A stretch of 64,000 nt of DNA from Escherichia coli (GTDB lineage Bacteria; Pseudomonadota; Gammaproteobacteria; Enterobacterales; Enterobacteriaceae), in the NCBI RefSeq assembly GCF_003334765.1, contig NZ_QOWT01000002.1. One strand, 5' to 3'. Shown here piece by piece: positions 14,357-30,180 of the stretch. Positions within the stretch are counted from its first letter, which is position 1, and every line of letters begins with the position of its first letter. The translations under genes and the position numbers were made by a program. The notes below the pieces were generated by a model that was not told where the DNA came from, did no database searches, and saw only the letters and a program-made list of their open reading frames with translations.

Positions 14357-14622
14357 TCCACCGTAAATTGAATGCCTGATTTTGAGGTATATGATCCAAC
14401 CTGATTCCGTGGTTCTCCTGAAGGTGTCGAATCTTGTGCTGGCGCTGCGTCAGTATTCATTGACATATACCGCTTAACGGCACTCCCCAATGATTCACCT
14501 TTTTTAACATCCAACCCCAATATCTGACCGCCATTACGCGATTGTCCAGGGTTGCCATTCGCGCTCATCCACTCGGCTTTAAACTCATTAAACTGCGCGT
14601 TTCGTCGCTCAAGGTTTGCCAT
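14353..14622 (-). pseudogene. Possible C-terminal fragment of the gp20-like ejection protein gene, out of frame with 14565..15482
   Basis: 89 aa ORF overlapping the upstream ORF by 58 nt in another frame; no SD before its ATG. Confidence 0.35.
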
Positions 14623-15482: not shown

Positions 15483-15492
15483 TGATTACCCC

Positions 15493-16188
15493 TTAATAAA
15501 GCAGTGAACCAAGCAGACCGATACCAGCACCGATACCAGCACCCCACGGAGTTGATGAACCAATTAATTTCGCAAGTCCAGCCCCAGCAATAGCACCAGA
15601 CGCACCTCCGCCAATAGCAGATTGCATTGCTGATGGTCTGTTGGCATTTGCCGCTGCAAGAGCCGCACTTTGCTGCGAAATCTGACTCATGTTGTTGGCA
15701 TATGTCTGCCCGGCGTTTGCCTGACCTTGCAGTGCGCCAAGACCAATATTTGCCAGATTCTGGTAGTTGTTCATCTGACCAGATAGCCATTGCTGACCAA
15801 GCGTTGGTGCGATTGTTGCTAACTGATTACCGGTTGCAGTGGAACCCAATCCACCTGTTGCTTCCGCTGCCGCCAGACTCTGATAGCGAGCCTGACCAGC
15901 AAGATCTTTGTACTGCTGAGAGTTGTAATACTGGTTAAGTGCCTGACCTTGCCCTTCCAGAGACGATAAGTTCTCGAGGCTGCCGACATACTTATCAGCC
16001 AGAGGAGTAAACGGCTTCAGGTTGTTCATGATGGTGTTGAACTGCTGATTTTGCAGGTCTGCGGCATACTTCTGAGCTTCTGCTGCATACTTTGCGCTTT
16101 TATCAGAACTGCCACCTTTCCCGCCTTTTTCAGGGCAATAAGGTTCCTCGCCGCGCAGTTTTCTGCCCAGCTTAAATGCATATAACAT
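15493..16188 (-). CDS. Ejection protein, P22 gp7-like (C-terminal 231 codons of the 460-aa ORF)
   Basis: From MLYAFKLGRKLRGEEP... the ORF is Q/N/G/A-rich with a Gly-rich hydrophobic C-terminus; length matches P22 gp7 (about 229 aa). Confidence 0.45.
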   Translation of the reverse strand: MLYAFKLGRKLRGEEPYCPEKGGKGGSSDKSAKYAAEAQKYAADLQNQQFNTIMNNLKPFTPLADKYVGSLENLSSLEGQGQALNQYYNSQQYKDLAGQARYQSLAAAEATGGLGSTATGNQLATIAPTLGQQWLSGQMNNYQNLANIGLGALQGQANAGQTYANNMSQISQQSAALAAANANRPSAMQSAIGGGASGAIAGAGLAKLIGSSTPWGAGIGAGIGLLGSLLY

Positions 16189-16875
16189 GGCTAACGCCGA
16201 GATGCCGTATTGCGCATAGCTCATACAATCAATTTCGCCTTCGCAAAGTACAACCGCCCTCACGCCAGCGTCCAGAGCCTGCCATCCGAACAGACAAGGT
16301 TCGCAATCACCTTCTGCCATAATGACTTTCTTCCCGTCCGGGCGCTCAGTGCTGATTCGCTTGACCTGCAACAACTCACCATCGCGTTTGTACGGAATCA
16401 CCAGAGCATCCAGTTCTCGCTCTCCATTCCACACCTTGCCGCTGACAACCTCGTAGCGCTTTACGATTTCTGGCGATATGCCACGCGATTGCAGGTACTC
16501 AAGATGGGATTCTGTTCTGGTAACGTAGCGGGCGATTTTCTTGCGATCAGGTCTGGAGAATTTCTTCTCACGTCTGGCATCGAAATGGTGATCGTCATCC
16601 TTGATACCGAGAAATGCTTTCGCTTCCTGCATAGCCTGATGCAGGTTAATTCCACGACATGCCATCCACAAATCAAGCATGTCACCGCCGTCTCCCTCAG
16701 CGAAATCAGCCCATTTTTTCTTGCCGCTAAGGTTGACCTTAAGGCTGTTTCCCTTGTCACCGTTGACGTTACCGGCAACCCACTCATGCCCCTCTTTCTT
16801 GCCGTTTGGCAACAGGTGCGGAGCCACCCTGTCAACCTGCGCCCAAAGCAGGTCGCTAAGTTCACTTGGCGTCAT
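16189..16875 (-). pseudogene. Truncated toprim-domain DNA primase (N-terminal 229 codons) fused in frame to the gp7-like gene
   Basis: Degenerate zinc-finger-like WADFAEGDGGDMLDLWM then toprim motif VVLCEGEIDCMS; no downstream DxD motif; directly follows O-like gene. Confidence 0.5.
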
Positions 16876-16982
16876 GATTCCCTCAGATTGAGATTTTTAA
16901 ACCAGAAATCGACAAACGAAATACTTAACCAGCCGTGGTTATAACCAGCGACCAGTAGCGATTTGATTTTTGATTTCATGGT

Positions 16983-17843
16983 TCACCTGTCGAAAAACAC
17001 GTAGCCAGTTTTCGATACGGTGATTGCGGATGATGGTTTGGATTGTGGTTGAATGGTTTCTGGCTTTTCGTCGTTCCAGCGCTGACCGTTCAGGTAGCTC
17101 GATGGTAACAACCTGTCGAATCCGAACTGCTTACCATTCCTGCATGCGATGTCTTCTGCCAGCATCGTGGCAAACTCGCTTGCCGTACCCCTGGTAGTTT
17201 TACGCCATTCCCTGAACTGTGTTCTGAATGCCGAAGCTGCGTTTTTCTTCCCGGCTTTCCGCATGCCTGCACACCAGAATATTTCCTCGAATGCCTTGTC
17301 GGTTTCTTCGTGACGGTCAGGTGATTTTTCACACTCCGTCCGAACACTTTCGGACATAGTGTTTTTATTATTTCTTTTTTCTTTTGTAATAGTTTCTTTT
17401 GTGTGTCCCTGTTTTGGTGACAGCGCTGTCACCGTTTTGGTGACACTTTTTGTCACCAATGCGGTGACATTATCACCAGAGTAGTGACACCCTTCGATTT
17501 GCCATTCCTCGATGTTCTTGTTAGGCCCGATTTGCTGGCCTTCGCGAAGGATAACCTTCATCGCGATAAGCTCATTCTTGGCCTTGTTTACCTTCTGTCT
17601 TGGCAGCCTGGTAATTTGAGCTAACTGACTATCAGAGATGCGATCCATCTTTTTACCGTAGCCGTATGTTTTACGGCATATGGCGTGGGCAACCTTGCTC
17701 TGATTTTTCGTTAAATCTGCGCCGATAAGCTCTTCATACAGGGCATTTGCAAGACGGGTATAACCATCTTCAACTTCTGCCACACGACGCTCCACAGGCC
17801 GTTGTGAAGGCCTTAAATGTGTTACGGTTGCAAGATTACTCAT
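16983..17843 (-). CDS. Replication initiator, lambda O-like (P22 gene 18-like)
   Basis: 286 aa; follows cII; iterons and AT-rich stretch lie inside the gene as in lambda ori. Confidence 0.65.
17359..17490. other. Phage replication origin: GGTGACA/TGTCACC iterons plus adjacent AT-rich region inside the O-like gene
   Basis: TTTTGGTGACAGCGCTGTCACCGTTTTGGTGACACTTTTTGTCACCAATGCGGTGACATTATCACC next to TTTTTATTATTTCTTTTTTCTTTTG. Confidence 0.6.
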
Positions 17844-18016
17844 GACCTTTCTCCTTCTGCATCAGCTTCACTTTTTCCAACTCAGCCCGGAATCGACCAG
17901 GCTGCTTGAAGCTGGACAGGAAGCGATCACGTAGTATGTGTTTGTGAATTTTGTCCTGGTAAGGACTGAGTTGTTTTGTCATAATGACTCCTGTGGATTG
18001 ATCCAGTCTTTCTACA

Positions 18017-18295
18017 TCAGGCCTCGAAGAATTCGCCGTTCTTCGGGGCTTTTTCTTTTGTCAGCATTCTGGCTACTTGCTTAGCCAGTTCCGCCAACTC
18101 CTCGTCTTCAACACCCCATTCAAGAACAGCAAGAAGCATTCCCATTTTGGGGATGAAGCTGTCTTTCCATCGCGAAATTTGCGATTCATTAATCCCTAAC
18201 GCGTCGGCAACCTTTCGCTGACCACGTACAGCAATTCGATTCAGGATGTTGCTTGTAATTGCATTCGCTTTCTTGCGAGTACTTGTAAGTTGCAT
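18017..18295 (-). CDS. CII-like transcriptional activator
   Basis: ...[46 protein letters not shown] resembles lambda CII ...[25 protein letters not shown]. Confidence 0.8.
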
Positions 18296-18353
18296 ATGTA
18301 AGTATTTCCTTAACTAATAAGAAGTTATGCGCATCAACTTATGCGCGTTGTAT

Positions 18354-18397
18354 TCCCGCATTTCGGCGGGAATGAGGACCATGACTGTTAAAGAGCG
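18354..18397 (-). promoter_or_regulatory. nutR: boxA CGCTCTTTAACA (18386..18397) and boxB hairpin TCCCGC-CGAAAT-GCGGGA (18354..18371)
   Basis: Read on minus strand just downstream of cro; boxB identical to the nutL copy. Confidence 0.6.
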
Positions 18398-18403
18398 GTG
18401 TTA

Positions 18404-18604
18404 CTATTTGTTTTTCTTGTTGCTTGGGAAAGGACGAACTTCCTCTCCAATCACACTGCCATCAGGCTTTACCGTAACCATAATGTTACGGCCTGCCAGA
18501 ATGGCCTTGCTGATAGCGCACTGGATTACACCAAAGTCACTGGCTGCTTTAGCCTGTCCATGGATTTTGGCGTAATCGGCAAGTGTCATTCGAATCATAT
18601 GCAC
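18404..18604 (-). CDS. cro: Cro repressor
   Basis: ...[59 protein letters not shown] resembles lambda Cro. Confidence 0.85.
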
Positions 18605-18629
18605 TCTCCGTTATTAACCATGAACAAAG

Positions 18630-18693
18630 AATACTACAGGTATTCAAAGCAATCAATACTCAGGGTATTTTTAGTTTAAGTACCTTAGCTATT
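18630..18693. promoter_or_regulatory. OR operators: AATACTACAGGTATT (18630..18644), AATACTCAGGGTATT (18655..18669), variant AGTACCTTAGCTATT (18679..18693)
   Basis: 15-bp palindromes at about 24-25 bp spacing between divergent cro and cI. Confidence 0.6.
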
Positions 18694-18704
18694 AGAATTA
18701 AGCT

Positions 18705-19421
18705 ATGGAAAATAAAAAATCACTGACGACAGAACAGCTCGAAGACGCTAAGCGGCTTAAGGCTTTGTATGAGTCAAAAAAGAAAGAATTGGGAATAACC
18801 CAATACTCAATCGCTGATGAACTGGGTATCACCCAAGGAGCGGTAGGGCATTATCTTAATGGCAGAAACGCGCTAAACGTTGAGGTCGCATCTGGTTTTG
18901 CACGTTTGTTGCAAGTCTCAATTGCTGATTTTAGCCAGTCAATTGCTGCCAAGGTTGCAGAACAGGCAGAAAGCCTTAAGAGCGATGCCAACGTAAGGTA
19001 TGCAGGGGAATACAGAGCAGGAAAGAGGTATCCGGTGTTAAGCAGTATCCAGGCTGGCTCGTGGTGTGAAGCATGCGAACCATACACCATTAAAGACATA
19101 GATGTTTGGCTTGAGTCTGACGCGCATATTCAAGGTAATGCGTTCTGGCTTAAAGTGGAAGGTGATTCAATGACGGCACCGGTTGGGTTAAGCATTCCAG
19201 AGGGAACATTCGTTCTTTTCGATACCGGAAGGGAGGCGATCAACGGCAGCTTGGTCATAGCAAAACTTTCTGACTCTAACGAAGCAACATTCAAGAAGCT
19301 GATAATCGACGGCGGAAATAAATACCTCAAGGGACTTAACCCTGCATGGCCTCTCGTGCCAATCAATGGAAACTGCAAGATTATAGGCGTTGCAATTGAG
19401 ACAAAACTAAGGCTGGTTTGA
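18705..19421 (+). CDS. cI: CI repressor (HTH plus S24 LexA-like autopeptidase domain)
   Basis: 238 aa; N-terminal HTH (QYSIADELGITQGAVGHYLNG), C-terminal ...KVEGDSM...ATFKKL; no SD before ATG, consistent with a leaderless pRM transcript. Confidence 0.85.
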   Translation: MENKKSLTTEQLEDAKRLKALYESKKKELGITQYSIADELGITQGAVGHYLNGRNALNVEVASGFARLLQVSIADFSQSIAAKVAEQAESLKSDANVRYAGEYRAGKRYPVLSSIQAGSWCEACEPYTIKDIDVWLESDAHIQGNAFWLKVEGDSMTAPVGLSIPEGTFVLFDTGREAINGSLVIAKLSDSNEATFKKLIIDGGNKYLKGLNPAWPLVPINGNCKIIGVAIETKLRLV

Positions 19422-19440
19422 TCACGCAAGGGGGGCGCTT

Positions 19441-19809
19441 ATGGTTGGAACCGCTATAGCAAGCTTTTTGGGGATGTTGGCAATCTCAACAATTTACGGC
19501 TTAGCGCATGCTTTTATTGCGAAATCTCTATCAGAAAAAATAAGCCAGGCTTGGGCGCATAGATCAGCTCGTTTCATGATTCTAGTGGTCATAGCAATAC
19601 AAGGGATATCTGCATTTATCCTCTATGGATCAAGCTTATACCTGTTGTATCAAGGAGCGACATTTACGCCTTACACCAGTGATTACGGAACTCTATACGA
19701 TGGTAGTGAAGACATCTCTATGGCTTGGATCGTCTTTGGTTTATCTATGGCCGTGTCTGTTGTAGCAGACATCATTAAGGTAATTCTCGTCTTAACCTTC
19801 GCTGACTAA
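19441..19809 (+). CDS. Small 3-TM membrane protein co-transcribed with cI (rex-locus position); candidate exclusion/abortive-infection factor
   Basis: 122 aa, three hydrophobic helices, strong SD AAGGGGGG 19 bp after cI stop. Confidence 0.6.
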   Translation: MVGTAIASFLGMLAISTIYGLAHAFIAKSLSEKISQAWAHRSARFMILVVIAIQGISAFILYGSSLYLLYQGATFTPYTSDYGTLYDGSEDISMAWIVFGLSMAVSVVADIIKVILVLTFAD

Positions 19810-19895
19810 CCCATAATCCCGGCAGCAATAGCTATCGGGATCCACTTCACATATCCCGCATAAAAAGCACTGAACAAGCAGATACCGAAAAAATA

Positions 19896-19980
19896 AATAT
19901 CCTTTGTATTCATTTGTTTATCATTATTTCATCAAAAATAAATACCTTGGGTATTTACACAATAAAATACCTACAGTATT
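19896..19980. promoter_or_regulatory. OL operators: AATATCCTTTGTATT (19896..19910), AATACCTTGGGTATT (19941..19955), AATACCTACAGTATT (19966..19980); pL region
   Basis: Same AATAC-N5-GTATT palindrome family as OR, upstream of the N-like gene. Confidence 0.55.
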
Positions 19981-20028
19981 CTTTAGCCATCAGCAGGACG
20001 CTGGAAGCCAAACGGAACAGATTGGCAG

Positions 20029-20069
20029 GCTCTTTAACATTGATGGGATTGTCCCGCCGAAATGCGGGA
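20029..20069 (+). promoter_or_regulatory. nutL: boxA GCTCTTTAACA (20029..20039) and boxB hairpin TCCCGC-CGAAAT-GCGGGA (20052..20069)
   Basis: rrn/lambda-like boxA followed 12 nt later by 6-bp stem hairpin identical to nutR boxB. Confidence 0.6.
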
Positions 20070-20176
20070 ACCAAAGAGTAGTTGGCTTTGGGGTGACGTG
20101 AAGTGCAGCTGCACGACGGCAACCGGAAGATAAGCACCCGGCGCGTCACCGCCAAAGCCAATCATCGGAGGTCAAC

Positions 20177-20473
20177 ATGATAATCGTTACTTATCTGGCT
20201 GATGATAACACCAGAAATCGCCGCAGAGCACGCAGACAGGCTCAACGTGAACAGGCAATGCAAGAACAGCGACTTGCGCGAAAAATTGCGCTAAAGCTCT
20301 CTGGTTGCGTCAGAGCAGATAAAGCAGCATCACTCGGAAGCCTTCGCTGCAAGAAGGCAGAAGAAGTCGAGCGTAAACAGAACCGTATTTACTACCGCAA
20401 GCCACGCAGTGAAATGGGTGTGACTTGTGTTGGTCGCCAGAAAATGAAATTAGGCAGCAAACCACTTATTTGA
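20177..20473 (+). CDS. N-like transcription antiterminator (arginine-rich motif)
   Basis: 98 aa; N-terminal ARM DDNTRNRRRARRQAQREQ; strong SD GGAGG; first gene after pL/nutL. Confidence 0.65.
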   Translation: MIIVTYLADDNTRNRRRARRQAQREQAMQEQRLARKIALKLSGCVRADKAASLGSLRCKKAEEVERKQNRIYYRKPRSEMGVTCVGRQKMKLGSKPLI

Positions 20474-20481
20474 GGTGAGAT

Positions 20482-20952
20482 ATGACAAAATCATGGAGCG
20501 TACCTTTTCCTGAATCAGAAACTGAACATGATGGAATGCCTGTTTTCTGGAGATTCCAAGCGACAGTTGAAGAAGATGGAATCAAAATATTCGCACTTCA
20601 ATATATAGCTTTTCATCAGACAGAGCATTATGCATGGTTGGTTCCTGCGCATTGGATTGTTGATTTTAAACCAGCACCAAATCAGTGGTTACAGGAATGG
20701 AAACAAAAGAGAAATAGATATGCAATTAAGAAAGTAGCAAAAAATGCAGAAAGATCTTTTGCATTCCCAACGAAGAAACTTGCCATTGAAAGTTTATTGC
20801 GCCGGAAGAAATACCATTTAATGAGAATAAAACAAGATTTGGCTGTTGTATCAACTCTTGTTGATGGGATGAAAAATATTGATACATCAACACCAGATAT
20901 TGAATATAACTTTGGACACAACCAAGAAACAGAAAATTGGGTATTTTATTAG
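20482..20952 (+). CDS. Hypothetical protein, AT-rich, unknown function
   Basis: 156 aa ORF immediately after the N-like gene; no recognisable motif. Confidence 0.5.
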   Translation: MTKSWSVPFPESETEHDGMPVFWRFQATVEEDGIKIFALQYIAFHQTEHYAWLVPAHWIVDFKPAPNQWLQEWKQKRNRYAIKKVAKNAERSFAFPTKKLAIESLLRRKKYHLMRIKQDLAVVSTLVDGMKNIDTSTPDIEYNFGHNQETENWVFY

Positions 20953-21056
20953 TACGAATAAGCACTGTGTATTCATTCCAACGAGTGAATACACGGAGCA
21001 ATGTCGCTCGTAACTAAACAGGAGCCGACTTGTTCTGATTATTGGAAGTCTTCTTT

Positions 21057-21084
21057 GCCCTCCGATGTGAGGGCTTTTTTATAT
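21057..21084 (+). terminator. Rho-independent terminator (GCCCTC-CGATGTG-GAGGGC + T6)
   Basis: GC stem followed by TTTTTT; candidate tL1 overridden by N. Confidence 0.65.
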
Positions 21085-21164
21085 GCATACCAATAACGCT
21101 TCACGAGAGGTGTTTATTCATGAGCGTAAACGCTGATTAATGAACGCAGTTGATAGGATATAAA

Positions 21165-21677
21165 ATGGCATTTATAAAGATTCTTGAATTAATTTCCCTA
21201 AGTGAGATTAATAATGTTGTCAAATATAACCCTATTTCTGGTGAGTTCACATGGCTAAAATCTTATGGAGCAAGAAAGATAGGTGGAACTGCCGGAACAA
21301 TAACAACAAGCGGCTACTTAAGGATTTTCATTAACGGAAGACACTATGCTGCACATAGACTTGCATGGATTATCACTTTCGGTGTTGAGCCTGAAGGTAT
21401 TATCGACCATATAAATGGCATAAAGACAGATAACAGAATTTGCAATCTGAGGCTTGCAACTTACTCACAGAATTCAATGAATAGTAAAATAAATACCCTC
21501 AACAAATCAGGTTGCAAAGGAGTCACATGGAAGAAGGAAAGTAGAAAGTGGGCTGCCTATGGGAAATTAAACGGGAAGAAAAAACATCTAGGGTACTTTA
21601 ATGAATTAGAAGATGCCAAAAAAGCTTACTGCGACTTTGCCAGAAAGCATCACGGCGAATTCTACAGGAGCAAATAA
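21165..21677 (+). CDS. HNH endonuclease with AP2-like DNA-binding domain
   Basis: HINGIKTDNRICNLRLATYSQN HNH motif; C-terminal GVTWKKESRKWAAYGKLNGKKKHLGYFNELEDAKKAY AP2-like; ORF track starts at TTG 21150. Confidence 0.7.
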   Translation: MAFIKILELISLSEINNVVKYNPISGEFTWLKSYGARKIGGTAGTITTSGYLRIFINGRHYAAHRLAWIITFGVEPEGIIDHINGIKTDNRICNLRLATYSQNSMNSKINTLNKSGCKGVTWKKESRKWAAYGKLNGKKKHLGYFNELEDAKKAYCDFARKHHGEFYRSK

Positions 21678-21811
21678 TGAATGAATATATTTTAGCGGGT
21701 AGCGGCGTCATGTCCGCTTTCTACCCGCACGAATCTGAATTATCACGCCGAGTTAAACAATTAATCAGAGCAGCAAAGAAACAACTGGAGGCGTTATGCG
21801 CAATGAAATAG
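21677..21811 (+). CDS. CIII-like small protein, 44 aa (not in ORF track)
   Basis: MNEYILAGSGVMSAFYPHESELSRRVKQLIRAAKKQLEAL resembles lambda CIII MQYAIAGWPVAGCPSESLLERITRKLRDGWKRL. Confidence 0.45.
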   Translation: MNEYILAGSGVMSAFYPHESELSRRVKQLIRAAKKQLEALCAMK

Positions 21812-21948
21812 CCATTAATCACCAGATGCTTCGTGCTGCACAGAACAAAGCAGTAATAGCCAGATTTATTGGTGATTCCAAAATGTGGCTTGAAGCAAAT
21901 AAAGCGATGAAATCAGCTATCAACCTTCCGTGGTATCGCAGGAAATGA
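21796..21948 (+). CDS. Kil-like small protein, 50 aa (not in ORF track)
   Basis: MRNEIAINHQMLRAAQNKAVIARFIGDSKMW...; directly follows cIII-like ORF; motif recalled from lambdoid Kil, unverified. Confidence 0.35.
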   Translation: MRNEIAINHQMLRAAQNKAVIARFIGDSKMWLEANKAMKSAINLPWYRRK

Positions 21949-22029
21949 GTTTTACAGATAACTGGTCAGACGAAGAATTCATTCGTCAGATGAACAAAAT
22001 GCTCAATCAGCACAAAGAACAGGAGAAAG

Positions 22030-22341
22030 ATGATGATTCTGACTCTGAATGATAAGCGTGAAATATCGCAAATAATCGCAAGTTTTACTGATGAAGATTA
22101 CGAGCGAATCAACAGTGAAGTTGATCGCCTCTGCAAACGTTGCGACCCAATAAGCGAAATGCTTCGCTCATATAAACCAGATGAACACACTAAGGACGCT
22201 ATCGACTGGCTGGAAGATGATGACTGTAACTATCAGGAAAAAGCCGCTGAATGGTTCTGGGATGCAATAACCGAAAGAGTTAAGGCTGAATATGCCTTCG
22301 CAATATTTAAACGCAGACACATTTTTGGAGAAGCTGCATGA
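22030..22341 (+). CDS. Hypothetical acidic protein upstream of recT
   Basis: 103 aa ORF with stop overlapping recT start. Confidence 0.5.
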   Translation: MMILTLNDKREISQIIASFTDEDYERINSEVDRLCKRCDPISEMLRSYKPDEHTKDAIDWLEDDDCNYQEKAAEWFWDAITERVKAEYAFAIFKRRHIFGEAA

Positions 22342-23240
22342 GCAATATCGTTGAATTCGTTAAACAGCAAGAGCAGTTATTCTGCGGAGCATTGACTGAA
22401 CAGACGGTGACATGGGCTAAGGAAAGCCAGTTTGCAATTCAGTATTTCCAGAAAAACGATTACCTGGCTAAAACAGCACTGGCAAATCCAACCAGCGCAC
22501 AGAACGCCATCATCAATGTTGCGGCGATCGGCATCACCTTAAACCCGGCCAGCAAACTGGCTTATCTGGTTCCTCGCGACGGCATGGTGTGCCTTGATAT
22601 CAGTTACATGGGATTACTTCACCTTGCACAGTCGACAGGATCAATTAAGTGGGGGCAATGCAAACTGGTGTACTCAAACGACACCTATGAATCAAACGGC
22701 CTTGATTCAGCACCAACCCACAAATACAACGCATTTGGTAAGCGAGGCTCTATTGTTGGTGGTTATTGTACGGTTAAAACAGCAGATGGTGACTACCTCA
22801 CTGAAGAAATGAGTCTGGCAGAAATTAAAGCTGTGGAAGCAACGAGCAAGGCAAAGAATGGACCGTGGAAGACATTCTGGGAAGAGATGGCGCGTAAAAC
22901 AATAGTTAAACGCGCCAGCAAATACTGGCCTAAAGCCCAGCGACTGGATAATGCCATTCACCTGCTTAACGAAGATGAAGGTATGCATCAGGAACCAGTT
23001 ATGCCGCACAAATCAGAGGAAGATATCCGCGAAGATGAACGGAAACGCCAGCAGGAAATTATGGAAAAAGCACAACTTCTTTGTGATGAAATGGCTCAGG
23101 CAGAAAACATGGATGATTTGAAGCGATATTTTGCAGAAGCATATCGCCTGACATCTGGAATGAAATTGCAGCAGAACGTACAAGCCATTTACATAGAATG
23201 CAAAGCGAAACTGGAGGTTGCCAGTGAGCAAACTGTATGA
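22338..23240 (+). CDS. recT: RecT-family single-strand annealing recombinase
   Basis: ...KNGPWKTFWEEMARKTIVKRASKYWP resembles E. coli RecT ...NNGPWVTHWEEMAKKTAIRRLFKYLP. Confidence 0.8.
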   Translation: MSNIVEFVKQQEQLFCGALTEQTVTWAKESQFAIQYFQKNDYLAKTALANPTSAQNAIINVAAIGITLNPASKLAYLVPRDGMVCLDISYMGLLHLAQSTGSIKWGQCKLVYSNDTYESNGLDSAPTHKYNAFGKRGSIVGGYCTVKTADGDYLTEEMSLAEIKAVEATSKAKNGPWKTFWEEMARKTIVKRASKYWPKAQRLDNAIHLLNEDEGMHQEPVMPHKSEEDIREDERKRQQEIMEKAQLLCDEMAQAENMDDLKRYFAEAYRLTSGMKLQQNVQAIYIECKAKLEVASEQTV

Positions 23241-23706
23241 AATTGCCAATGAATACGCAAAATTGATGGATTCAGATTTAGAACCAGAGATGATTGCTGA
23301 CACAATAGAAGGCATGGAAGGAGAATTTACCGATAAAATAGAGCAACTTCTTTCCGTCATTAAAAATGAATCTGGTTATGCTGAACGCCTCAAGGAAGAG
23401 GCAAAGTCACTGAATGAGCGAGCCGCAGTAATTCAAAATAAGATTGACAGCATCAAATCATATATAGCGTCATCGCTTGAAATGGTTGGCAAGAAAAATA
23501 TTCGAGCAGGTATTCACCAGGTAACAATCCGCAAACCGTCAGAAACTGTAGAAATCATCGACTCAAGCGCCCTTCCTCCTGAATACCTTGAGTTTGAAAC
23601 GACAATTAAAGCCGACAAACTGGCAATCAAGCACCAACTAAAAGCAGGAATAAATATTCCCGGTGCTCAACTCAAGGTTGGGAAACCTTCACTTCTTATC
23701 AAATAA
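23218..23706 (+). CDS. Phage protein, coiled-coil N-terminus (Gp157/Mu-Gam-like?), unknown function
   Basis: 162 aa ORF overlapping recT end. Confidence 0.45.
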   Translation: MPVSKLYEIANEYAKLMDSDLEPEMIADTIEGMEGEFTDKIEQLLSVIKNESGYAERLKEEAKSLNERAAVIQNKIDSIKSYIASSLEMVGKKNIRAGIHQVTIRKPSETVEIIDSSALPPEYLEFETTIKADKLAIKHQLKAGINIPGAQLKVGKPSLLIK

Positions 23707-23717
23707 CGGTATCGCCT

Positions 23718-24032
23718 ATGAAAAAGACTCCATGGGAGAAATGGGAAGTCGATTTCTTGCGCGAAGTAGCGGCGACAATGCCAGTTGAAGTTATCGCTGA
23801 AAAACTGGAAAGGACTGAAAAAGCAGTAATGGCAAAAGCAACAAGGATTGGCGCTGACATTGTTAGCCGACTTCGTGGAAGACGATGGACAAGAGCCGAA
23901 GTATCACTTTTCGGTAAGTTCTCCGCAGAAGAAATAGCAATTGCAACCTGCCGATCAATTTATTCAGTAAGAGCTATGCGATACAAGCTAAAAAAACTCG
24001 ATGAAGAAAGAGCAGGCATACGAATAAATTAA
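23718..24032 (+). CDS. Hypothetical phage protein
   Basis: 104 aa ORF in early-left operon. Confidence 0.45.
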
Positions 24033-24212
24033 CAAAGAGGAATTAATCATGAGAGGGCTTGCATACAATCCCGGCATTCTTCCGGCAGAAATGATTATTC
24101 GCCAACGCGTAAAGCCAATGCCATCGAGAGAGGAATTGCTTAAGAGAAATAGTTTCGGTTCTGTTAATGACAACAAATATCTGAATGCGATGTTGCGTAA
24201 AGGAGGCAAGCA

Positions 24213-24512
24213 GTGAGTGTATGTCTTATTGATAAACGTCGACGTGGGCAACAAATACCATCTGTTGGAATGCCGAATCACACATGGTTTTGCGTACTTG
24301 ATATCGATGGTATGGATGCGTTGGTTGACACTCGTCATTACTGCGATACCGCAACAGCTACTCCGGCGAAAGCAAAGAAAATGGCTGCTCTGATAGAAAA
24401 CTGGACTCCACCTGATGGTTGGTGCAATGGGAATGATCGAGATTGGCACGAAAAAATGAAGGGCTATATCTGCGATTTTTTACGTAAATGCAACGGCTTC
24501 AGGGTGATGTGA
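24213..24512 (+). CDS. Hypothetical phage protein (Cys/His/Trp-rich)
   Basis: 99 aa ORF. Confidence 0.4.
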
Positions 24513-24513
24513 T

Positions 24514-24921
24514 ATGAACAAGATTGACTATCAGGCACTGCGTGAAGCGGCAGAGAAAGCCGGTGAAGATAAGTGGCAGGCTAAAAAAATAAATGGTGAT
24601 TTTTTCGTTATTCGTCACGGTAGTTATACAAGACAGCATGGCTACACATCGTATCAACCCATTGCGGAGATTGATTGTAAGCAAGTCCGGGATTTTGTTG
24701 CCAAGGCTAATCCGGCTACCGTGCTGGAATTACTGGATGAACTGGAAGCAGCAAAAAAGCGCATTGCAGAACTGAAAGCGCGGGAAATACTGCTCCCGGA
24801 ACGTAGCAGCATGCTTCATCGAACAGATTTTCACGATGATTACCAAACGGTAATGGCATACAAAGTTTCTGAAGTCATCGATGCAATCCGCGCTACTGGC
24901 ATTCGCATCAAAGGAGAGTGA
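24514..24921 (+). CDS. Hypothetical phage protein (Ead/Ea22-like region)
   Basis: 135 aa ORF, 1-bp gap from previous ORF. Confidence 0.45.
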   Translation: MNKIDYQALREAAEKAGEDKWQAKKINGDFFVIRHGSYTRQHGYTSYQPIAEIDCKQVRDFVAKANPATVLELLDELEAAKKRIAELKAREILLPERSSMLHRTDFHDDYQTVMAYKVSEVIDAIRATGIRIKGE

Positions 24922-24922
24922 T

Positions 24923-25552
24923 ATGAGCGCTATAACCAAAGAACGTATCAAATTATTCATTAAAAATCCGCTTGATAACGGACTTACTCGTGGCGAACAA
25001 ATGGAACTGGCACGAATTGCACTGGCATCACTGGAACGCGAACAGATTCGCCACGAGCATGCCAAATGGTCTGACTCCACATTTGGCTGCGTTGGCCCCA
25101 TTGGTCCACTGAAACACCTCTCAAAAGAGGCACTGGAAGCCGCAGCCGAACCTGACGATCTCAGCGAGTGGGCTGATATGCAGTTCCTGTTGTGGGATGC
25201 ACAGCGCCGTGCTGGTATCAGTGATGCTGAAATTACCGCTGCTATGGAAAATAAATTGAAGATCAACATGGAGCGCCAGTGGCCTGAGCCAAAAGATGGT
25301 GAGCCTCGCTTGCACATTAAAGAACCCGGCAACTCTCCGGTAACTCCGGATGGTTGGATAAGCTGTAGTGATCGAATGCCGGAAGACACCAAAATGTTAC
25401 TGGCATTTAGTCAAGGTAAAATCGTGGCCGCATATTGGAACTGGGTTATAAATCCAATTGATTACAAAAAATATAGAGCTTTCACGTATTTATCAGGATA
25501 TATCTTGGATGACGTAACTCACTGGATGCCGCTACCAGAGCCTCCACTTTGA
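24923..25552 (+). CDS. Hypothetical phage protein with DUF551-like C-terminus
   Basis: SD AAGGAGAG before ATG 24923; C-terminal ...HWMPLPEPP typical of lambdoid early-region proteins. Confidence 0.5.
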   Translation: MSAITKERIKLFIKNPLDNGLTRGEQMELARIALASLEREQIRHEHAKWSDSTFGCVGPIGPLKHLSKEALEAAAEPDDLSEWADMQFLLWDAQRRAGISDAEITAAMENKLKINMERQWPEPKDGEPRLHIKEPGNSPVTPDGWISCSDRMPEDTKMLLAFSQGKIVAAYWNWVINPIDYKKYRAFTYLSGYILDDVTHWMPLPEPPL

Positions 25553-25647
25553 AAGCGAAGCTTATACATATCTTTTACATCAGCAATCTATTGTTAATCT
25601 CCAATCAATGTTACGTTGTCATCTCACTCATGCTTTGGAGGTAGTGA

Positions 25648-25828
25648 TATGTCTTGTCCAAAATGCGGTTCTGGAAATATTGCAAAAGAAAAAACAATGC
25701 GTGGATGGTCTGGTGATTATGTGTGCTGCGATTGCGGATACAACGACTCTAAAGACGCATTTGGAGAGCGTGGTAAAAACGAGTTTGTTAAAATTAATAA
25801 AGAACGCGAAGGCAACGAAAAAAGCTAA
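25648..25828 (+). CDS. Small zinc-ribbon protein (CPKCG...CCDCG)
   Basis: SD GGAGG before ATG 25648; two CxxC pairs. Confidence 0.5.
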
Positions 25829-25891
25829 TTTATTTATTCATATATGAAAACAATGTAACCAATATTCGAATTGAAGAACTGAAAGAACACC

Positions 25892-25916
25892 AAGCCGCCT
25901 GATGGCGGTTTTTTAT
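25892..25916 (+). terminator. Rho-independent terminator (AGCCGCC-TGAT-GGCGGTT + T-run)
   Basis: GC-rich hairpin followed by TTTTTTAT. Confidence 0.7.
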
Positions 25917-25924
25917 TACCTGAT

Positions 25925-25940
25925 TTGCAGGTTCGATTCC
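25925..25940. repeat. Internal partial argW copy TTGCAGGTTCGATTCC (T-arm segment)
   Basis: 16-nt identity with 5601..5616 of argW, located upstream of torI. Confidence 0.6.
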
Positions 25941-25959
25941 CTATTCGGAGATAGCACTC

Positions 25960-26160
25960 ATGCAACACGAACTACAGCCTGATTCACTGGTTGATTTGAA
26001 ATTCATCATGGCCGATACTGGCTTCGGTAAAACCTTCATCTATGACCGGATTAAGTCCGGCGACCTGCCAAAAGCCAAAGTTATCCACGGGCGAGCAAGA
26101 TGGTTATATCGTGACCATTGTGAATTCAAAAATAAGCTCTTAAGCCGCGCCAATGGGTAA
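25960..26160 (+). CDS. torI: TorI: recombination directionality factor (excisionase) and TorR inhibitor
   Basis: 66 aa MQHELQPDSLVDLKFIMADTGFGKTFIYDRIKSGDLPKAKVIHGRARWLYRDHCEFKNKLLSRANG; recognised. Confidence 0.85.
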   Translation: MQHELQPDSLVDLKFIMADTGFGKTFIYDRIKSGDLPKAKVIHGRARWLYRDHCEFKNKLLSRANG

Positions 26161-26232
26161 AATAGCGGGTAAAATATTTCTCACATCTAAAAAACACCAT
26201 TCCAATCAATCCCCTGCCGCTTCAAGTAGATG

Positions 26233-26248
26233 TCTGCAGGGGACACCA
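26233..26248. repeat. attR core: 16-nt direct repeat CTGCAGGGGACACCAT
   Basis: Identical to argW 3' end at 5616..5631. Confidence 0.7.
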
Positions 26249-26343
26249 TCCTTGTGTTTATCCCTAAAACCACATAAAAACCGTAAATTAAATTCGAACT
26301 AGCAGGCCGAATAAGGCACACCAGGAACTCGTGGTTTTATTCA

Positions 26344-27279
26344 TTATGAAGTGGTTTTTACCTGTTCTCTTAGCCAGATAATAAACGCTTCAATTTTTGG
26401 CCACTGCCTGCCCGGTAATGTGGTGATGTAATAATGCTGATGGCATTTCACCGTCATATCGCCAAACGGCGCGACGAGCTCACCACTGGCAAGCCTTTTT
26501 TGTACCAGGCGTTTTCTTCCCATCGCCACCCCAATATGATTCATCGCGGCAATAACAGCTAAATCAGAACGATCAAAGCCAATTCCAGAAGATGTCGGCA
26601 AATTAACCGCATAATGTTGCGCCCAACTATGCCATTCATCCGTACCGGAGTCGTTGCTCCATGCCTGTCTGTCATGGAGCAACGTACAGTGACACAGGTT
26701 AATTACCGTGTTGGTTAAAGCATGTCTTTGAGCGTATTCCGGGCTACATACTGGCAGGATTTCTTCATCCATCAGAAAGTGATGAGTGAGTTGCGCTGAC
26801 GGCGCATCATCAAAGTAGATCGCCAAATCGATTCCGGCACGTTGCAGATTGACGTTGTCATTACCAGTGAGCACGGTGAGCGAAATAGACGGATACCGGC
26901 GTGTAAAGTCACCTAATGCGGGCACCAACCAGCATTGGGCGATAGAGGGCCGGGAATACAGAGTTAACGTTCCCGATAACTCCTGATTTTTGATATCAAG
27001 AATTTCCTGGTTCAGGGTATCCAGCGACGATTTTAGCGCCCAATAAACACGTTTCCCCTCGTGCGTTAATTCCACTTTGCGATGGGAACGAACAAACAAC
27101 TGAATGCCCAATTCTTCTTCCAGCTGATTGATACGGTGACTTACCGCACTGGGGCTCAGCGACAATTCCTCTGCCGCCAGGGCGAAGGACTGATGCCTGG
27201 CAGCCACTTCAAAAGTATGCATTTTTGATAATTGCCAGCCGTTAAGCAGCCGATTTCTTATTTCACGAAGGGGTTCCAT
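26344..27279 (-). CDS. dsdC: LysR-family activator of D-serine utilisation DsdC
   Basis: Recognised; ORF 26344..27285, start probably MEPLREIRN. Confidence 0.9.
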   Translation of the reverse strand: MEPLREIRNRLLNGWQLSKMHTFEVAARHQSFALAAEELSLSPSAVSHRINQLEEELGIQLFVRSHRKVELTHEGKRVYWALKSSLDTLNQEILDIKNQELSGTLTLYSRPSIAQCWLVPALGDFTRRYPSISLTVLTGNDNVNLQRAGIDLAIYFDDAPSAQLTHHFLMDEEILPVCSPEYAQRHALTNTVINLCHCTLLHDRQAWSNDSGTDEWHSWAQHYAVNLPTSSGIGFDRSDLAVIAAMNHIGVAMGRKRLVQKRLASGELVAPFGDMTVKCHQHYYITTLPGRQWPKIEAFIIWLREQVKTTS

Positions 27280-27496
27280 AATCACCTCATTTTTCGCTTA
27301 AGTGTAAAAAAATAGCGGCAAAATTTCAGCTATGAGATGAGCTAAAGTAAACCATATCTCAATTCACCTTCATTTTTAGATGTAAATCACTCCATTGATG
27401 CAATTTACCTCATGTGAAAGGCAAATTTTATCGTTTGTCAGCCTGCGTTGTTTTTTTGTCCAATATCATCAGGTTAATCACAGGGGAAGGTGAGAT

Positions 27497-28834
27497 ATGC
27501 ACTCTCAAATCTGGGTTGTGAGCACGCTGCTTATCAGCATCGTGTTAATTGTACTGACCATCGTGAAGTTCAAATTCCACCCGTTTCTGGCGCTGTTGCT
27601 GGCCAGCTTCTTCGTGGGAACGATGATGGGCATGGGGCCACTGGATATGGTAAATGCTATTGAAAGTGGAATTGGCGGAACGCTGGGGTTCCTCGCAGCG
27701 GTTATCGGCCTTGGCACGATACTGGGAAAAATGATGGAAGTATCCGGGGCCGCAGAAAGAATTGGTCTGACACTTCAACGCTGCCGCTGGCTTTCAGTTG
27801 ATGTCATTATGGTGCTGGTTGGCCTGATTTGTGGCATCACGCTGTTTGTTGAAGTGGGCGTCGTGCTATTGATTCCTCTGGCTTTTTCAATTGCCAAAAA
27901 AACCAATACCTCATTATTAAAGCTTGCCATTCCGCTATGTACCGCATTGATGGCAGTGCACTGCGTGGTTCCTCCACATCCGGCTGCTTTATATGTTGCC
28001 AATAAGCTGGGCGCAGATATCGGTTCGGTGATCGTCTACGGTTTGCTGGTTGGGCTGATGGCATCACTGATCGGTGGCCCACTTTTCCTTAAATTTCTGG
28101 GTCAACGACTGCCCTTTAAACCTGTACCCACAGAGTTTGCAGATCTCAAAGTTCGCGATGAAAAAACACTACCGTCATTAGGCGCAACGTTATTCACCAT
28201 ACTGCTACCCATTGCGCTGATGTTGGTTAAAACGATTGCCGAATTGAATATGGCGCGTGAGAGTGGTTTGTATATCTTGGTTGAGTTTATTGGCAACCCT
28301 ATCACTGCCATGTTTATCGCCGTGTTTGTCGCCTATTATGTGTTGGGTATACGCCAGCATATGAGCATGGGGACGATGCTCACACATACGGAAAATGGCT
28401 TCGGTTCTATTGCTAATATTTTGCTGATTATCGGGGCCGGAGGCGCATTCAACGCCATTTTAAAAAGCAGCAGTCTCGCTGATACGCTGGCAGTTATTCT
28501 CTCCAATATGCATATGCACCCGATTCTTCTGGCCTGGTTAGTGGCTCTTATTCTGCATGCGGCAGTGGGCTCCGCTACCGTGGCAATGATGGGGGCAACG
28601 GCAATTGTTGCACCCATGCTGCCGCTGTATCCCGACATCAGCCCGGAAATTATTGCGATTGCTATCGGTTCAGGTGCAATTGGCTGCACTATCGTTACGG
28701 ACTCGCTTTTCTGGCTAGTGAAGCAATATTGCGGCGCTACGCTCAATGAAACATTTAAATACTATACGACAGCGACATTTATCGCTTCAGTCGTCGCTCT
28801 GGCGGGCACATTCCTGCTGTCATTTATCATCTAA
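27497..28834 (+). CDS. dsdX: D-serine transporter DsdX (GntP family)
   Basis: 445 aa polytopic membrane protein; synteny dsdC-dsdX-dsdA. Confidence 0.9.
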
Positions 28835-28851
28835 GCGCAAAGAGACGTACT

Positions 28852-30180
28852 ATGGAAAACGCTAAAATGAACTCGCTCATCGCCCAGTATCCGTTGGTAA
28901 AGGATCTGGTTGCTCTTAAAGAAACCACCTGGTTTAATCCTGGCACGACCTCATTGGCTGAAGGTTTACCTTATGTTGGCCTGACCGAACAGGATGTTCA
29001 GGACGCCCATGCGCGCTTATCCCGTTTTGCACCCTATCTGGCAAAAGCATTTCCTGAAACTGCTGCCACTGGGGGGATTATTGAATCAGAACTGGTTGCC
29101 ATTCCAGCTATGCAAAAACGGCTGGAAAAAGAATATCAGCAACCGATCAGCGGGCAACTGTTACTGAAAAAAGATAGCCATTTGCCCATTTCCGGCTCCA
29201 TAAAAGCACGCGGCGGGATTTATGAAGTCCTGGCACACGCAGAAAAACTGGCTCTGGAAGCGGGGTTGCTGACGCTTGATGATGACTACAGCAAACTGCT
29301 TTCTCCGGAGTTTAAACAGTTCTTTAGCCAATACAGCATTGCTGTGGGCTCAACCGGAAATCTGGGGTTATCAATCGGCATTATGAGCGCCCGCATTGGC
29401 TTTAAGGTGACAGTTCATATGTCTGCTGATGCCCGGGCATGGAAAAAAGCGAAACTGCGCAGCCATGGCGTTACGGTCGTGGAATATGAGCAAGATTATG
29501 GTGTTGCCGTCGAGGAAGGACGTAAAGCAGCGCAGTCTGACCCGAACTGTTTCTTTATTGATGACGAAAATTCCCGCACGTTGTTCCTTGGGTATTCCGT
29601 CGCTGGCCAGCGTCTTAAAGCGCAATTTGCCCAGCAAGGCCGTATCGTCGATGCTGATAACCCTCTGTTTGTCTATCTGCCGTGTGGTGTTGGCGGTGGT
29701 CCTGGTGGCGTCGCATTCGGGCTTAAACTGGCGTTTGGCGATCATGTTCACTGCTTTTTTGCCGAACCAACGCACTCCCCTTGTATGTTGTTAGGCGTCC
29801 ATACAGGATTACACGATCAGATTTCTGTTCAGGATATTGGTATCGACAACCTTACCGCAGCGGATGGCCTTGCAGTTGGTCGCGCATCAGGCTTTGTCGG
29901 GCGGGCAATGGAGCGTCTGCTGGATGGCTTCTATACCCTTAGCGATCAAACCATGTATGACATGCTTGGCTGGCTGGCGCAGGAAGAAGGTATTCGTCTT
30001 GAACCTTCGGCACTGGCGGGTATGGCCGGACCTCAGCGCGTGTGTGCATCAGTAAGTTACCAACAGATGCACGGTTTCAGCGCAGAACAACTGCGTAATA
30101 CCACTCATCTGGTGTGGGCGACGGGAGGTGGAATGGTGCCGGAAGAAGAGATGAATCAATATCTGGCAAAAGGCCGTTAA
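28852..30180 (+). CDS. dsdA: D-serine dehydratase (ammonia-lyase) DsdA
   Basis: 442 aa; PLP lysine motif SGSIKARGG; recognised. Confidence 0.95.

Follow-up and report, generated by a model that had tools for sequence, protein, structure and literature searches.

The block at positions 22030–24032 (plus strand) of the 64,000-nucleotide stretch of Escherichia coli DNA analysed here, called the window below, is a homologous-recombination (Rec) module. It lies in the early-left operon of a P22-like prophage that is integrated at argW and is defective. The block comprises, in this order, the genes of an acidic protein of 103 amino acids (X), a RecT, a protein of 160–162 amino acids of the Sipho_Gp157 family (Gp157) and a basic protein of 104 amino acids. 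The arrangement is already known: it is a catalogued type of Rec module, with RecT and a Mu-Gam-like end-binding protein and no phage exonuclease. The block was 92–99% identical to that of phages HK140, mEpX1, Kapi1 and Gally, and was present in 265 out of 5426 complete E. coli genomes. It most likely represents a host-nuclease-dependent RecT module with two accessories of the anti-RecBCD type.

The early-left operon extended from cI at 18705 to xis at 26160, and its main features are listed in Table 1. The cassette was tightly packed, with overlaps among the X, RecT and Gp157 genes and the 104-aa Abc1-like gene in last position. The stop codon of X and the start codon of RecT overlapped by 4 nt (a common ATGA), with a GGAG located 6 nt 5' of the RecT ATG, and the overlap between RecT and Gp157 was 17 nt. 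The original prediction had placed these three reading frames and their overlaps correctly, but it described a three-gene RecT set, whereas the module is made of four genes, the Abc1-like gene following Gp157. The kil gene provided a positional landmark comparable to the lambda kil-gam-bet order. The prophage itself is a deletion remnant. It has no nin, Q, lysis, terminase, portal or coat genes, and at 15493–16875 the N-terminus of a primase is fused to the C-terminus of an ejection protein. It is also a mosaic, since none of the E. coli genomes covered more than 50% of the region 8000–27000 of the window.

Table 1. Features of the early-left operon in and around the Rec module (window coordinates).
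Feature	Position	Strand	Observations
HNH-type endonuclease	21150–21677		Only nuclease-like gene of the operon; cIII, kil and the 40-aa ORF lie between it and the module
cIII-like gene	21677..21811	+	phrog_550, 2.3e-10; positional landmark
kil	21796..21948	+	phrog_2055, 1.2e-35; BLASTP against lambda Kil, 7.5e-7
40-aa acidic ORF (w40)	21930..22052	+	phrog_17766, 7.6e-16; phrog_2123, 5.3e-10; overlaps the start of X
X, 103 aa, acidic	22030..22341	+	Gam/GamL slot; candidate RecBCD inhibitor
RecT-family single-strand annealing protein (predicted), 300 aa	22338..23240	+	PF03837, i-E 9.5e-33
Sipho_Gp157 protein, 160 aa	23224..23706	+	PF05565, i-E 2e-37; 162 aa from TTG 23218
104-aa basic protein, pI 10.0	23718..24032	+	phrog_323, 2.8e-20; right flank of the Rec module

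The Pfam match of RecT covered residues 31–214, and the protein also matched phrog_148 (2.9e-91). The score against TIGR00616 was above threshold (75.5 bits for a cut-off of 52.65) and that against the Rac RecT equivalog NF007351 was below it (90.8 bits for a cut-off of 296). On these family matches the protein is predicted to be a strand-annealing protein of the RecT family, as had been proposed. Its sequence type was nearest to the RecT of phages phi80 (57% identity over 228 aa) and HK639 (66%), and corresponds to the annealing-protein type “SAP-4” of Zheng et al. 2025 (PMC12315714).

No ORF of the operon, from cI to xis, matched an exonuclease family. Homologues of Exo, YqaJ, DUF3799 or RecE were found within 4 kb in none of 80 related viral contigs, and no exonuclease is annotated in the whole genome of the intact phage mEpX1, which carries the same block. 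The absence of a partner exonuclease announced by the original prediction is thus borne out, and the module lacks the adjacent 5'-3' exonuclease gene by which a two-component exonuclease/annealase system is recognized. The regular pairing of RecT with an exonuclease, also stated in that prediction, is no rule in lambdoid phages. A nuclease is missing from 84 of 246 lambdoid Rec modules, with HK140 cited as an example, and 46 phages make up the class “anti-RecBCD + SAP only” (PMC12315714). A nuclease fold was also sought in X and in Gp157 and none was found; the gene context ties both proteins to recombination modules and not to unrelated early functions. These were the two points on which the original prediction could have failed.

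The Pfam match of Gp157 spans the full length of the family model (positions 1–162 of 162), and the protein matched phrog_253, labelled “Mu Gam-like end protection” in PHROGs, with an E value of 5.4e-54. The GTG at position 23224, giving 160 aa, is probably a likelier start than the TTG at 23218, giving 162 aa, because it is preceded by a GGAGG with a 6-nt spacer and because nearly all homologues are 160 aa long. The AF2 model showed one long helix, from residue 21 to 87, and a C-terminal beta domain; in view of this single helix, the coiled-coil description initially given was a fair one. The suggestion of anti-RecBCD or Gam/Gp157-like accessories was good as well, the equivalent protein of HK140 being counted as “MuGam” type by Zheng et al. 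2025 (PMC12315714). The wording “two unknown proteins”, applied to the neighbours of RecT, was incorrect on account of Gp157; X had no annotation in any database searched. The idea of a novel recombination accessory pair has to be abandoned, as Gp157 is an annotated family and the block occurs in sequenced phages and in the E. coli genomes counted above.

Mu Gam is a Ku-like DNA-end binding protein. It blocks RecBCD at DNA ends (PMC12407980, PMC12315714). The Gp157 of the window did not match the Mu Gam family PF07352 even at E ≤ 10, and three of seven Gp157 family members matched Pfam Phage_Mu_Gam weakly (E ≤ 0.1). With hhalign, Gp157 and Mu Gam were aligned in register in their C-terminal part, with an E value of 0.039 and a probability of only 1.3%. 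The Gp157 profile compared to all PDB chains gave no match below E 0.04. The slot located 3' of RecT contains Exo in phi80 (GamL-RecT-Exo-phrog_1680) and Gp157 in HK639 (GamL-RecT-Gp157-phrog_1680), with flanking genes 53% and 92% identical, and a second exchange between Gp157 and an exonuclease was seen in the comparison of loci L012 and L013. Gp157 and Exo/YqaJ are interchangeable in the slot directly downstream of RecT. We infer from family membership and position that Gp157 would be a DNA-end-binding, anti-RecBCD partner of RecT.

X has a pI of 4.65 (24 D + E and 15 K + R), in keeping with the acidic ORF first reported, and would measure 102 aa if translated from the alternative ATG at 22033. 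It belongs to phrog_3486, a family of proteins of ~100 aa and pI ~4.7. The family medians (102 aa, pI 4.67, net charge −8.5) can be compared to the values for GamS (98 aa, 4.78 and −10) and GamL (94 aa, 4.62 and −7). As in the Gam/GamL type, the protein is small, strongly acidic and encoded directly 5' of the Rec genes after kil and cIII. The set of 80 viral contigs was used for slot statistics; the relatives, only 96–99% identical, were too close to deepen the Gp157 profile. X was found upstream of RecT-Gp157 in 75 of these loci and was replaced in two of them by a homologue of lambda Gam (63% identity), the two genes never occurring together. In HK639, the same slot upstream of RecT-Gp157 is filled by GamL. 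The same RecT-Gp157 block is immediately preceded by X, by lambda Gam or by phi80 GamL, which replace one another in this slot. In all seven informative further contexts, X likewise lay immediately 5' of a Rec module; the composition of these modules varied, and X kept its place in front of four different compositions, down to 25–35% identity.

The sequence comparisons of X with Gam and GamL gave little. None of 32 members of the X family matched the Pfam family Gam (PF06064). The hhalign comparison with Gam (E 0.0016, probability 16%) was restricted to a 27-residue C-terminal motif, DDDxx(F/Y)QE. In the control comparison, Gam and GamL were linked with a probability of 93% by an N-terminal helix motif, MNAY..DRIE..W, which was missing from the X alignment. 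Lambda GamS enters RecB with its N-terminal helix (PMC5218532). An end-to-end collinear alignment of X with the single phi80 GamL sequence (E 0.008) weakened to an E value of 0.14 and a probability of 0.4% with a profile of seven GamL sequences, and therefore homology between X and GamL is not claimed. The X profile had no match below E 0.04 among all PDB chains. The AF2 model of X, built on only eight sequences, gave no significant Foldseek match in the PDB (all E ≥ 4); the best-ranking structural match of X in the PDB was GamS. Of three long matches to the X family, two, P0162 and P0182, were saposin-repeat-like proteins and were judged to be spurious repeat-summed matches.

We propose, tentatively and with more doubt than confidence, that X is a third family of Gam-type RecBCD inhibitors, unrelated in sequence, besides lambda Gam and phi80 GamL. 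X could instead be a gene of the module boundary, whose Gam-like position, size and charge would be a product of convergence or coincidence, and act as a regulator, as a RecT/RecE-independent accessory comparable to P22 Arf, or as an anti-defence moron, with the rest of the module unchanged. This is supported by the missing N-terminal motif and by the sequence comparisons, which did not link X significantly with either Gam or GamL, and phage early operons frequently encode small acidic helical proteins. Moreover, the equivalent gene was not counted as anti-RecBCD in HK140 or SEN22 by Zheng et al. (PMC12315714). We nevertheless regard this alternative as rather unlikely, given the three-way replacement in one slot with no co-occurrence, the constant place of X in front of modules of four compositions, its translational coupling to whichever Rec gene comes next and the rank of GamS as top structural match. 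A very different possibility is that an exonuclease gene once adjoined RecT and was lost during the degeneration of the prophage, leaving a functionally meaningless arrangement. The prophage is clearly defective, with its fusion and its missing structural and lysis genes. However, the same gene order and overlaps exist in the plaque-forming or induced phages mEpX1, HK140, Kapi1 and Gally, the full order w40-X-RecT-Gp157-104-aa gene was observed in 73 of the 80 viral contigs, none of the four ORFs is shortened in comparison with its homologues, and the intergenic space is too small for a lost gene. Because the arrangement is common to intact phages, this reading was rejected as highly improbable; the nuclease-less state is the normal one in these four viable phages and not a product of decay.

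It is also conceivable, although rather improbable in our opinion, that Gp157 is the functional replacement of the exonuclease and not an end protector directed against RecBCD. As a RecT-specific partner it would then recruit or activate a nuclease of the host, in the way that RecBCD is re-programmed by P22 Abc2, or load RecT on DNA. Its position is exactly that of Exo/YqaJ in sister modules, statistical support for its homology to Mu Gam is weak, and it is found alongside a bona fide Gam or GamL, which would be redundant if blocking RecBCD were the sole role of Gp157. The C-terminal tail of RecT also differs according to the partner: it was 47–48% identical among Gp157-partnered RecTs and 19% identical to that of the Exo-partnered phi80 RecT, a covariation that is based on three closely comparable sequences versus one and that follows the overall divergence. 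In addition, Gp157-like genes accompany Erf and Sak4 in phages of Firmicutes (PMC8093625). Against this, no known nuclease-recruiting motif was found in Gp157, the family is placed with Mu Gam both by PHROGs and by Zheng et al. (PMC12315714), and the Pfam cross-matches to Phage_Mu_Gam, weak as they are, are repeated. This alternative overlaps with the preferred explanation, as binding of the DNA end and hand-off to RecT are compatible.

The last gene of the module was observed in 79 of the 80 loci. Its product shares phrog_323 with P22 Abc1 (1.3e-23) and with Mu gp9 (5.2e-29), the 104-aa protein and Abc1 matching the profile on offset positions. Its position just after the Rec genes is that of abc1 in P22, and the homologue in phage Gally is annotated as “similar to P22 Abc1”. 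Direct comparison did not establish that the protein is Abc1 (BLASTP, E 4.6, not significant), and P22 was not reached by tblastn; the shared PHROG is the sole support for this identity. The 40-aa ORF, present in 74 of the 80 loci and missing along with X in the two lambda Gam loci, is possibly a small gene of the module. It could not be equated with P22 Arf, the BLASTP match around “SDEEFI” extending over 7 residues with an E value of 0.33 and the ORF falling in phrog_17766 and phrog_2123, not in phrog_2445.

Among known systems, HK140 and mEpX1, together with Kapi1 and Gally, possess the same genes in the same order (X, RecT, Gp157, 104-aa gene) with 92–99% nucleotide or protein identity, the difference being that the module of the window lies at argW in a P22-like prophage reduced by deletions. 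The HK140 type was defined as “SAP-4 + MuGam, no nuclease, no SSB” by Zheng, Casjens, Davidson, Amundsen and Smith in 2025, with no role for X or the 104-aa gene (PMC12315714). The P22 system (arf, erf, abc1, abc2) similarly combines an annealing protein, the absence of a phage exonuclease and a modified host RecBCD (PMC12315714). It too has, just downstream, an Abc1-type gene belonging to phrog_323, and its kil gene is separated from the module by a small acidic ORF. However, the annealing protein of P22 is Erf instead of RecT, its anti-RecBCD protein is Abc2, which was found in none of the 80 related loci, and Gp157 does not exist in P22 (“absent in P22” in the Gally record). Phages phi80 and HK639 share the sequence type of RecT, and HK639 also possesses the RecT-Gp157 pair (62.5% identity), with a small acidic gene of the Gam type in front of it. 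They differ by this upstream gene, which is GamL (phrog_1050), homologous to lambda Gam (phrog_259) and with no detectable homology to X, and phi80 has Exo in place of Gp157. With lambda Red (gam-bet-exo) and Rac RecET, the module has in common an annealing protein of the RecT superfamily and the early-left operon position after cIII and kil, but neither Exo nor RecE is present and its Gam slot holds a gene whose sequence family is unrelated. Finally, Gp157 and Mu Gam are similar in length and show the C-terminal similarity described above, and gp9 adjoins gam in Mu as the phrog_323 gene adjoins Gp157 in the window. The order of the two genes is reversed in Mu, however, and the families are distinct (PF05565/phrog_253 for Gp157, PF07352/phrog_491 for Mu Gam), homology between them lacking statistical support.

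The explanation that we favour as a whole, and consider fairly probable, is that of a Rec module in which Gp157 is Mu Gam-like, X is Gam/GamL-like and resection is supplied by the host. In this model, Gp157 would bind double-strand ends as a dimeric coiled-coil protein, prevent the loading of RecBCD and hand the DNA end to RecT, perhaps via the partner-specific C-terminal tail of RecT. X, a small acidic helical protein, would block RecBCD in the manner of lambda Gam or GamL. The 5' resection needed by RecT would come from host nucleases, or RecT would act on single-stranded DNA at replication forks. The cassette would therefore work like the P22 class, in which an annealing protein is combined with anti-RecBCD functions and no nuclease, and unlike lambda Red or Rac RecET. 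A point against the explanation is that it would be unusual for one module to encode two anti-RecBCD proteins, HK639 being the sole listed case (PMC12315714).

As found, the block is of minor importance, being another copy of a common, catalogued type of E. coli prophage Rec module. If X were truly an inhibitor, modules of the HK140 type would possess two anti-RecBCD layers, one, X, directed at the enzyme and the other, Gp157, at the DNA end. An anti-RecBCD protein would also be present in SEN22-type modules and in several of RecT-YqaJ or RecE-RecT composition, all of them scored as having none. The anti-RecBCD scoring of lambdoid Rec modules would then shift, and with it the reported link between the density of Chi sites and the lack of an inhibitor. 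X would also be a new tool for recombineering and for the sensitization of bacteria to quinolones, a use already demonstrated with lambda Gam. Going one step further, Gp157 would truly stand in for the exonuclease in function, docking on a partner-specific C-terminal tail of RecT. The Exo/Gp157 swap and the RecT tail would offer a handle on the supply of substrate in nuclease-less annealing-protein systems, and this bears on why many RecTs serve for oligonucleotide recombineering but poorly for that of double-stranded DNA.

RecT stands in a block of four genes, X-RecT-Gp157-104-aa gene, where X is the acidic 103-aa ORF and Gp157 the Sipho_Gp157 family protein downstream of RecT. The identity of RecT was given by PF03837 (9.5e-33), phrog_148 (2.9e-91) and TIGR00616, over its curated cut-off. 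The end of X and the start of RecT have an ATGA in common, and RecT overlaps the Gp157 gene by 17 nt. The likeliest start of the latter is the GTG at 23224, 6 nt after GGAGG, which gives 160 aa, the length of almost all homologues. No ORF of the early-left operon matched an exonuclease family. Because the prophage is defective, intact relatives were examined. In mEpX1, a complete phage with the same block, no exonuclease is annotated anywhere in the genome, and tblastn with lambda Exo, phi80 Exo, a YqaJ, a DUF3799 and the RecE-like protein of Salmonella phage SEN22 as queries gave no match closer than 4 kb to the block in any of 80 related viral contigs. The original prediction of a RecT lacking an exonuclease and overlapped by two ORFs, one of them acidic (X, pI 4.65), was borne out. 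The second ORF had been described as an unknown coiled-coil protein; the AF2 model does contain one long helix (residues 21-87), followed by a C-terminal beta domain, but the protein is a full-length member of Sipho_Gp157 (PF05565, 2e-37).

Features of the prophage and its surroundings (window positions)
Feature	Position	Strand	Family or remark
tRNA-Arg (CCT)	5556-5630		other prophage end
Integrase	5756-6949		adjoins tRNA-Arg (CCT)
cI-like repressor	18705-19421	+	
N-like protein	20177-20473	+	arginine-rich N-terminus
156-aa gene	between N-like and HNH genes	+	phrog_1636
HNH-type endonuclease	21150-21677	+	phrog_99, 1.2e-68
cIII-like gene	21677-21811	+	phrog_550
kil	21796-21948	+	phrog_2055
Acidic 40-aa ORF	21930-22052	+	pI 4.2
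X, 103 aa	22030-22341	+	phrog_3486
RecT	22338-23240	+	PF03837, TIGR00616, phrog_148
162-aa ORF (Gp157)	23218-23706	+	PF05565, phrog_253
Basic 104-aa ORF	23718-24032	+	phrog_323
More small early genes	between 104-aa and 66-aa ORFs	+	
66-aa ORF, putative TorI-like excisionase	25960-26160	+	own sequence and position
Putative host dsdC, dsdX, dsdA	ORFs at 26344-30180		translations read by eye

The RecT region is on the + strand and belongs to the early-left operon of a prophage of lambdoid type. A remnant left by deletion, this prophage stems from a P22-like phage and retains the tailspike, Ant and ejection proteins. A 460-aa ORF at 15493-16875 (-) fuses the N-terminal half of a primase/toprim protein (residues 2-228, phrog_239) to the C-terminal half of a P22 gp7-type DNA-ejection protein (residues 230-458, phrog_598). 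The fusion marks a large in-frame deletion, through which the remaining replication genes, nin, Q and the lysis, terminase, portal and coat genes were lost. The site-specific recombination genes are about 19 kb apart, with the integrase at one end and the putative excisionase, whose ORF adjoins the dsdC-like ORF, at the other. This split layout is reminiscent of that of KplE1/CPS-53 in E. coli K-12. The HNH gene is an insertion in the operon, 5' of cIII and kil, and is not contiguous with the RecT module; in phage Louie, an HNH endonuclease annotation falls under the match to the block. Its appearance is that of a mobile gene of homing type, not of a RecT partner.

The 1.9-kb block was found near full length, with 91-98% nucleotide identity, in several phages, including EC.P3, Kapi1, vB_EcoP-683R2, Louie, mEpX1, Gally and HK140, and at least 80% of it was present in 265 of 5426 complete E. 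coli genomes. In RefSeq, RecT appears as a "RecT family recombinase" and its downstream neighbour as a "siphovirus Gp157 family protein". A 2025 survey (Zheng, Casjens, Davidson, Amundsen and Smith, Genome Res, PMC12315714) covered 246 phages that infect Enterobacteriales, drawn from a panel of 325 lambdoid genomes, and analysed their Rec modules. A nuclease gene is absent from 84 of these modules, and 46 phages, with P22 as the prototype, possess only an anti-RecBCD and an annealing protein. This survey makes the exonuclease-less RecT an established module type, of which this exact block is a named example. The block is real but ordinary, a catalogued module type carried by hundreds of E. coli genomes. 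The first interpretation was thus supported in part: the accessory role proposed for the neighbours of RecT, and literally the Gp157 guess, stood up; the supposed rarity and novelty did not.

Gp157 also matched phrog_253, "Mu Gam-like end protection" (5.4e-54). In hhalign, the C-terminal domains of the Gp157 family and Mu Gam were in register (E 0.039, with a probability of only 1.3%), and Pfam Phage_Mu_Gam was detected at E<=0.1 in three of seven family members scanned singly. Our own tests thus agree in direction and point weakly to a relationship with Mu Gam. The genomic context gave a clearer picture. The gene order is GamL-RecT-Exo-phrog_1680 in phi80 and GamL-RecT-Gp157-phrog_1680 in HK639, the outer genes sharing 53% and 92% identity. 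The same exchange was seen in a metagenomic pair of loci, X-RecT-YqaJ-phrog_1680 (L012) and X-Y8K6-RecT-Gp157-phrog_1680 (L013), so that Gp157 and the exonuclease are alternatives in one slot. For phages of Firmicutes, genes resembling Gp157 and genes resembling Mu gam are reported to replace each other upstream of erf and sak4 (PMC8093625). A recent preprint makes the case that DNA ends are occupied, and RecBCD excluded, both by complexes of Exo with the annealing protein and by dimers of Mu Gam (PMC12407980). The RecT cores share 75-85% identity among Gp157-partnered proteins and 61% with phi80 RecT. The tail (last ~85 residues, approximately 215-300; window 22980-23240) showed 47-48% identity within the first group and 19% against the Exo-partnered phi80 RecT. 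This small sample hints that the tail may be a partner-specific interaction domain.

X, a member of phrog_3486, had no match in Pfam, NCBIfam or PDB sequences. X belongs to a small family. When 1.84 billion representative proteins were searched with its profile, 51 matched at E<=0.001, and the full-length ones were essentially all of about 100 aa. Three long proteins (P0162, P0167 and P0182; 538, 3663 and 908 aa) matched the profile repeatedly, over 5-11 stretches. Of these, P0162 and P0182 were inspected and appear to have cysteine-rich, saposin-like repeats, and the matches are probably chance similarity to a helical domain summed over repeats. X lies directly 5' of RecT-Gp157 in 75 of the 80 viral contigs. 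Seven further cases were informative: cIII-X-RecT-YqaJ (L009), X-RecT-YqaJ (L012), cIII-X-DUF3799-RecT (L010), X-DUF3799 (L011), X-Y8K6-RecT-Gp157 (L013, L014) and, in SEN22, X-RecE-like nuclease-189 aa-104 aa. In every informative case X is the first Rec-module gene, whatever the module contains, and it usually overlaps the next gene. Since it accompanies YqaJ, DUF3799 and RecE-like genes, X as a replacement for the exonuclease is ruled out.

The SEN22 segment (L002, 5394-6784) has the same X and 104-aa genes as flanks. Between them, a 273-aa protein matches ExoVIII solely over the nuclease end (NF007259 positions 606-858), the second inner gene encodes a 189-aa protein (phrog_11517), and no annealing protein was recognisable in the segment; Zheng et al. 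class SEN22 as "SSB + nuclease" (PMC12315714). The X family almost always ends in E-[AV]-A (last three columns of its alignment, A3). The terminal codons (window 22328-22341) sit between GGAG and the ATGA overlap with RecT, and this conservation may reflect translational coupling instead of protein function. The 40-aa ORF runs 23 nt into X and has "SDEEFI" in common with P22 Arf. It is present in 74 of the 80 related loci and is missing, together with X, from the two loci having lambda Gam.

The 104-aa protein and P22 Abc1 both belong to phrog_323, and the authors of the Gally record annotated the gene as Abc1-like; a direct comparison of the two proteins was not significant. Mu gp9 is also phrog_323 (5.2e-29) and lies directly upstream of Mu gam (L016, 5482-6325). 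In the window (23224-24032), the phrog_323 gene is directly downstream of the Mu-Gam-type Gp157. A phrog_323 gene beside a Mu-Gam-type gene thus recurs in two otherwise unrelated phages, and may be part of a conserved functional pair. The phrog_1680 gene (109-144 aa) is found repeatedly to the right of Rec modules (L017 3526-3960; L018 5197-5625; L013 5988-6422; L012 1939-2268). It comes after Exo/YqaJ or Gp157, at the place of the Abc1-like gene in the window.

The gene identities, the missing nuclease and the slot exchanges are observed. The best and reasonably likely reading assigns the cassette to the Rec modules of P22 class. In it, RecT would anneal single strands. Gp157 would bind double-strand ends, block RecBCD loading and perhaps pass the end to RecT, while X would inhibit RecBCD or another host nuclease directly and the Abc1-like protein would assist; we infer these biochemical functions for all three proteins. 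Resection would be performed by host nucleases, or single-stranded DNA at forks would be used. Chi (GCTGGTGG) was absent from both strands of the 20.7-kb prophage (window 5631-26300), and the 41.6-kb mEpX1 genome has six on one strand and none on the other; low Chi content fits phages encoding anti-RecBCD functions (PMC12315714). That Gp157 is instead a nuclease-recruiting or RecT-loading partner and not an end protector is unlikely, and this reading overlaps the proposed one. A decayed remnant, contradicted by the intact phages, is highly improbable.

The role of X was weighed against the known RecBCD inhibitors. A lambda Gam homologue (63% identity) occupies the exact X position in two of the 80 contigs (L059, L096), X and Gam never occur in the same locus among the 80, and in HK639 the position is held by GamL. 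In bulk properties X (median 102 aa, pI 4.67, net charge -8.5) resembles lambda GamS (98 aa, 4.78, -10) and phi80 GamL (94 aa, 4.62, -7). In hhalign, however, X matched Gam with a probability of 16%, over a DDDxx(F/Y)QE motif, and GamL with 0.4%, whereas Gam and GamL are joined (93%) by an N-terminal helix, MNAY..DRIE..W, that X does not have. In lambda GamS, it is the N-terminal helix that is inserted into the RecB single-strand channel (PMC5218532). That X has no relation to RecBCD is rather doubtful. It is quite possible, if somewhat less likely than not, that X works like Gam; membership in the Gam family is not claimed for it. Two points keep some interest: X may be a third Gam-type inhibitor, and Exo and Gp157 are exchanged beside a RecT tail that may be partner-specific.
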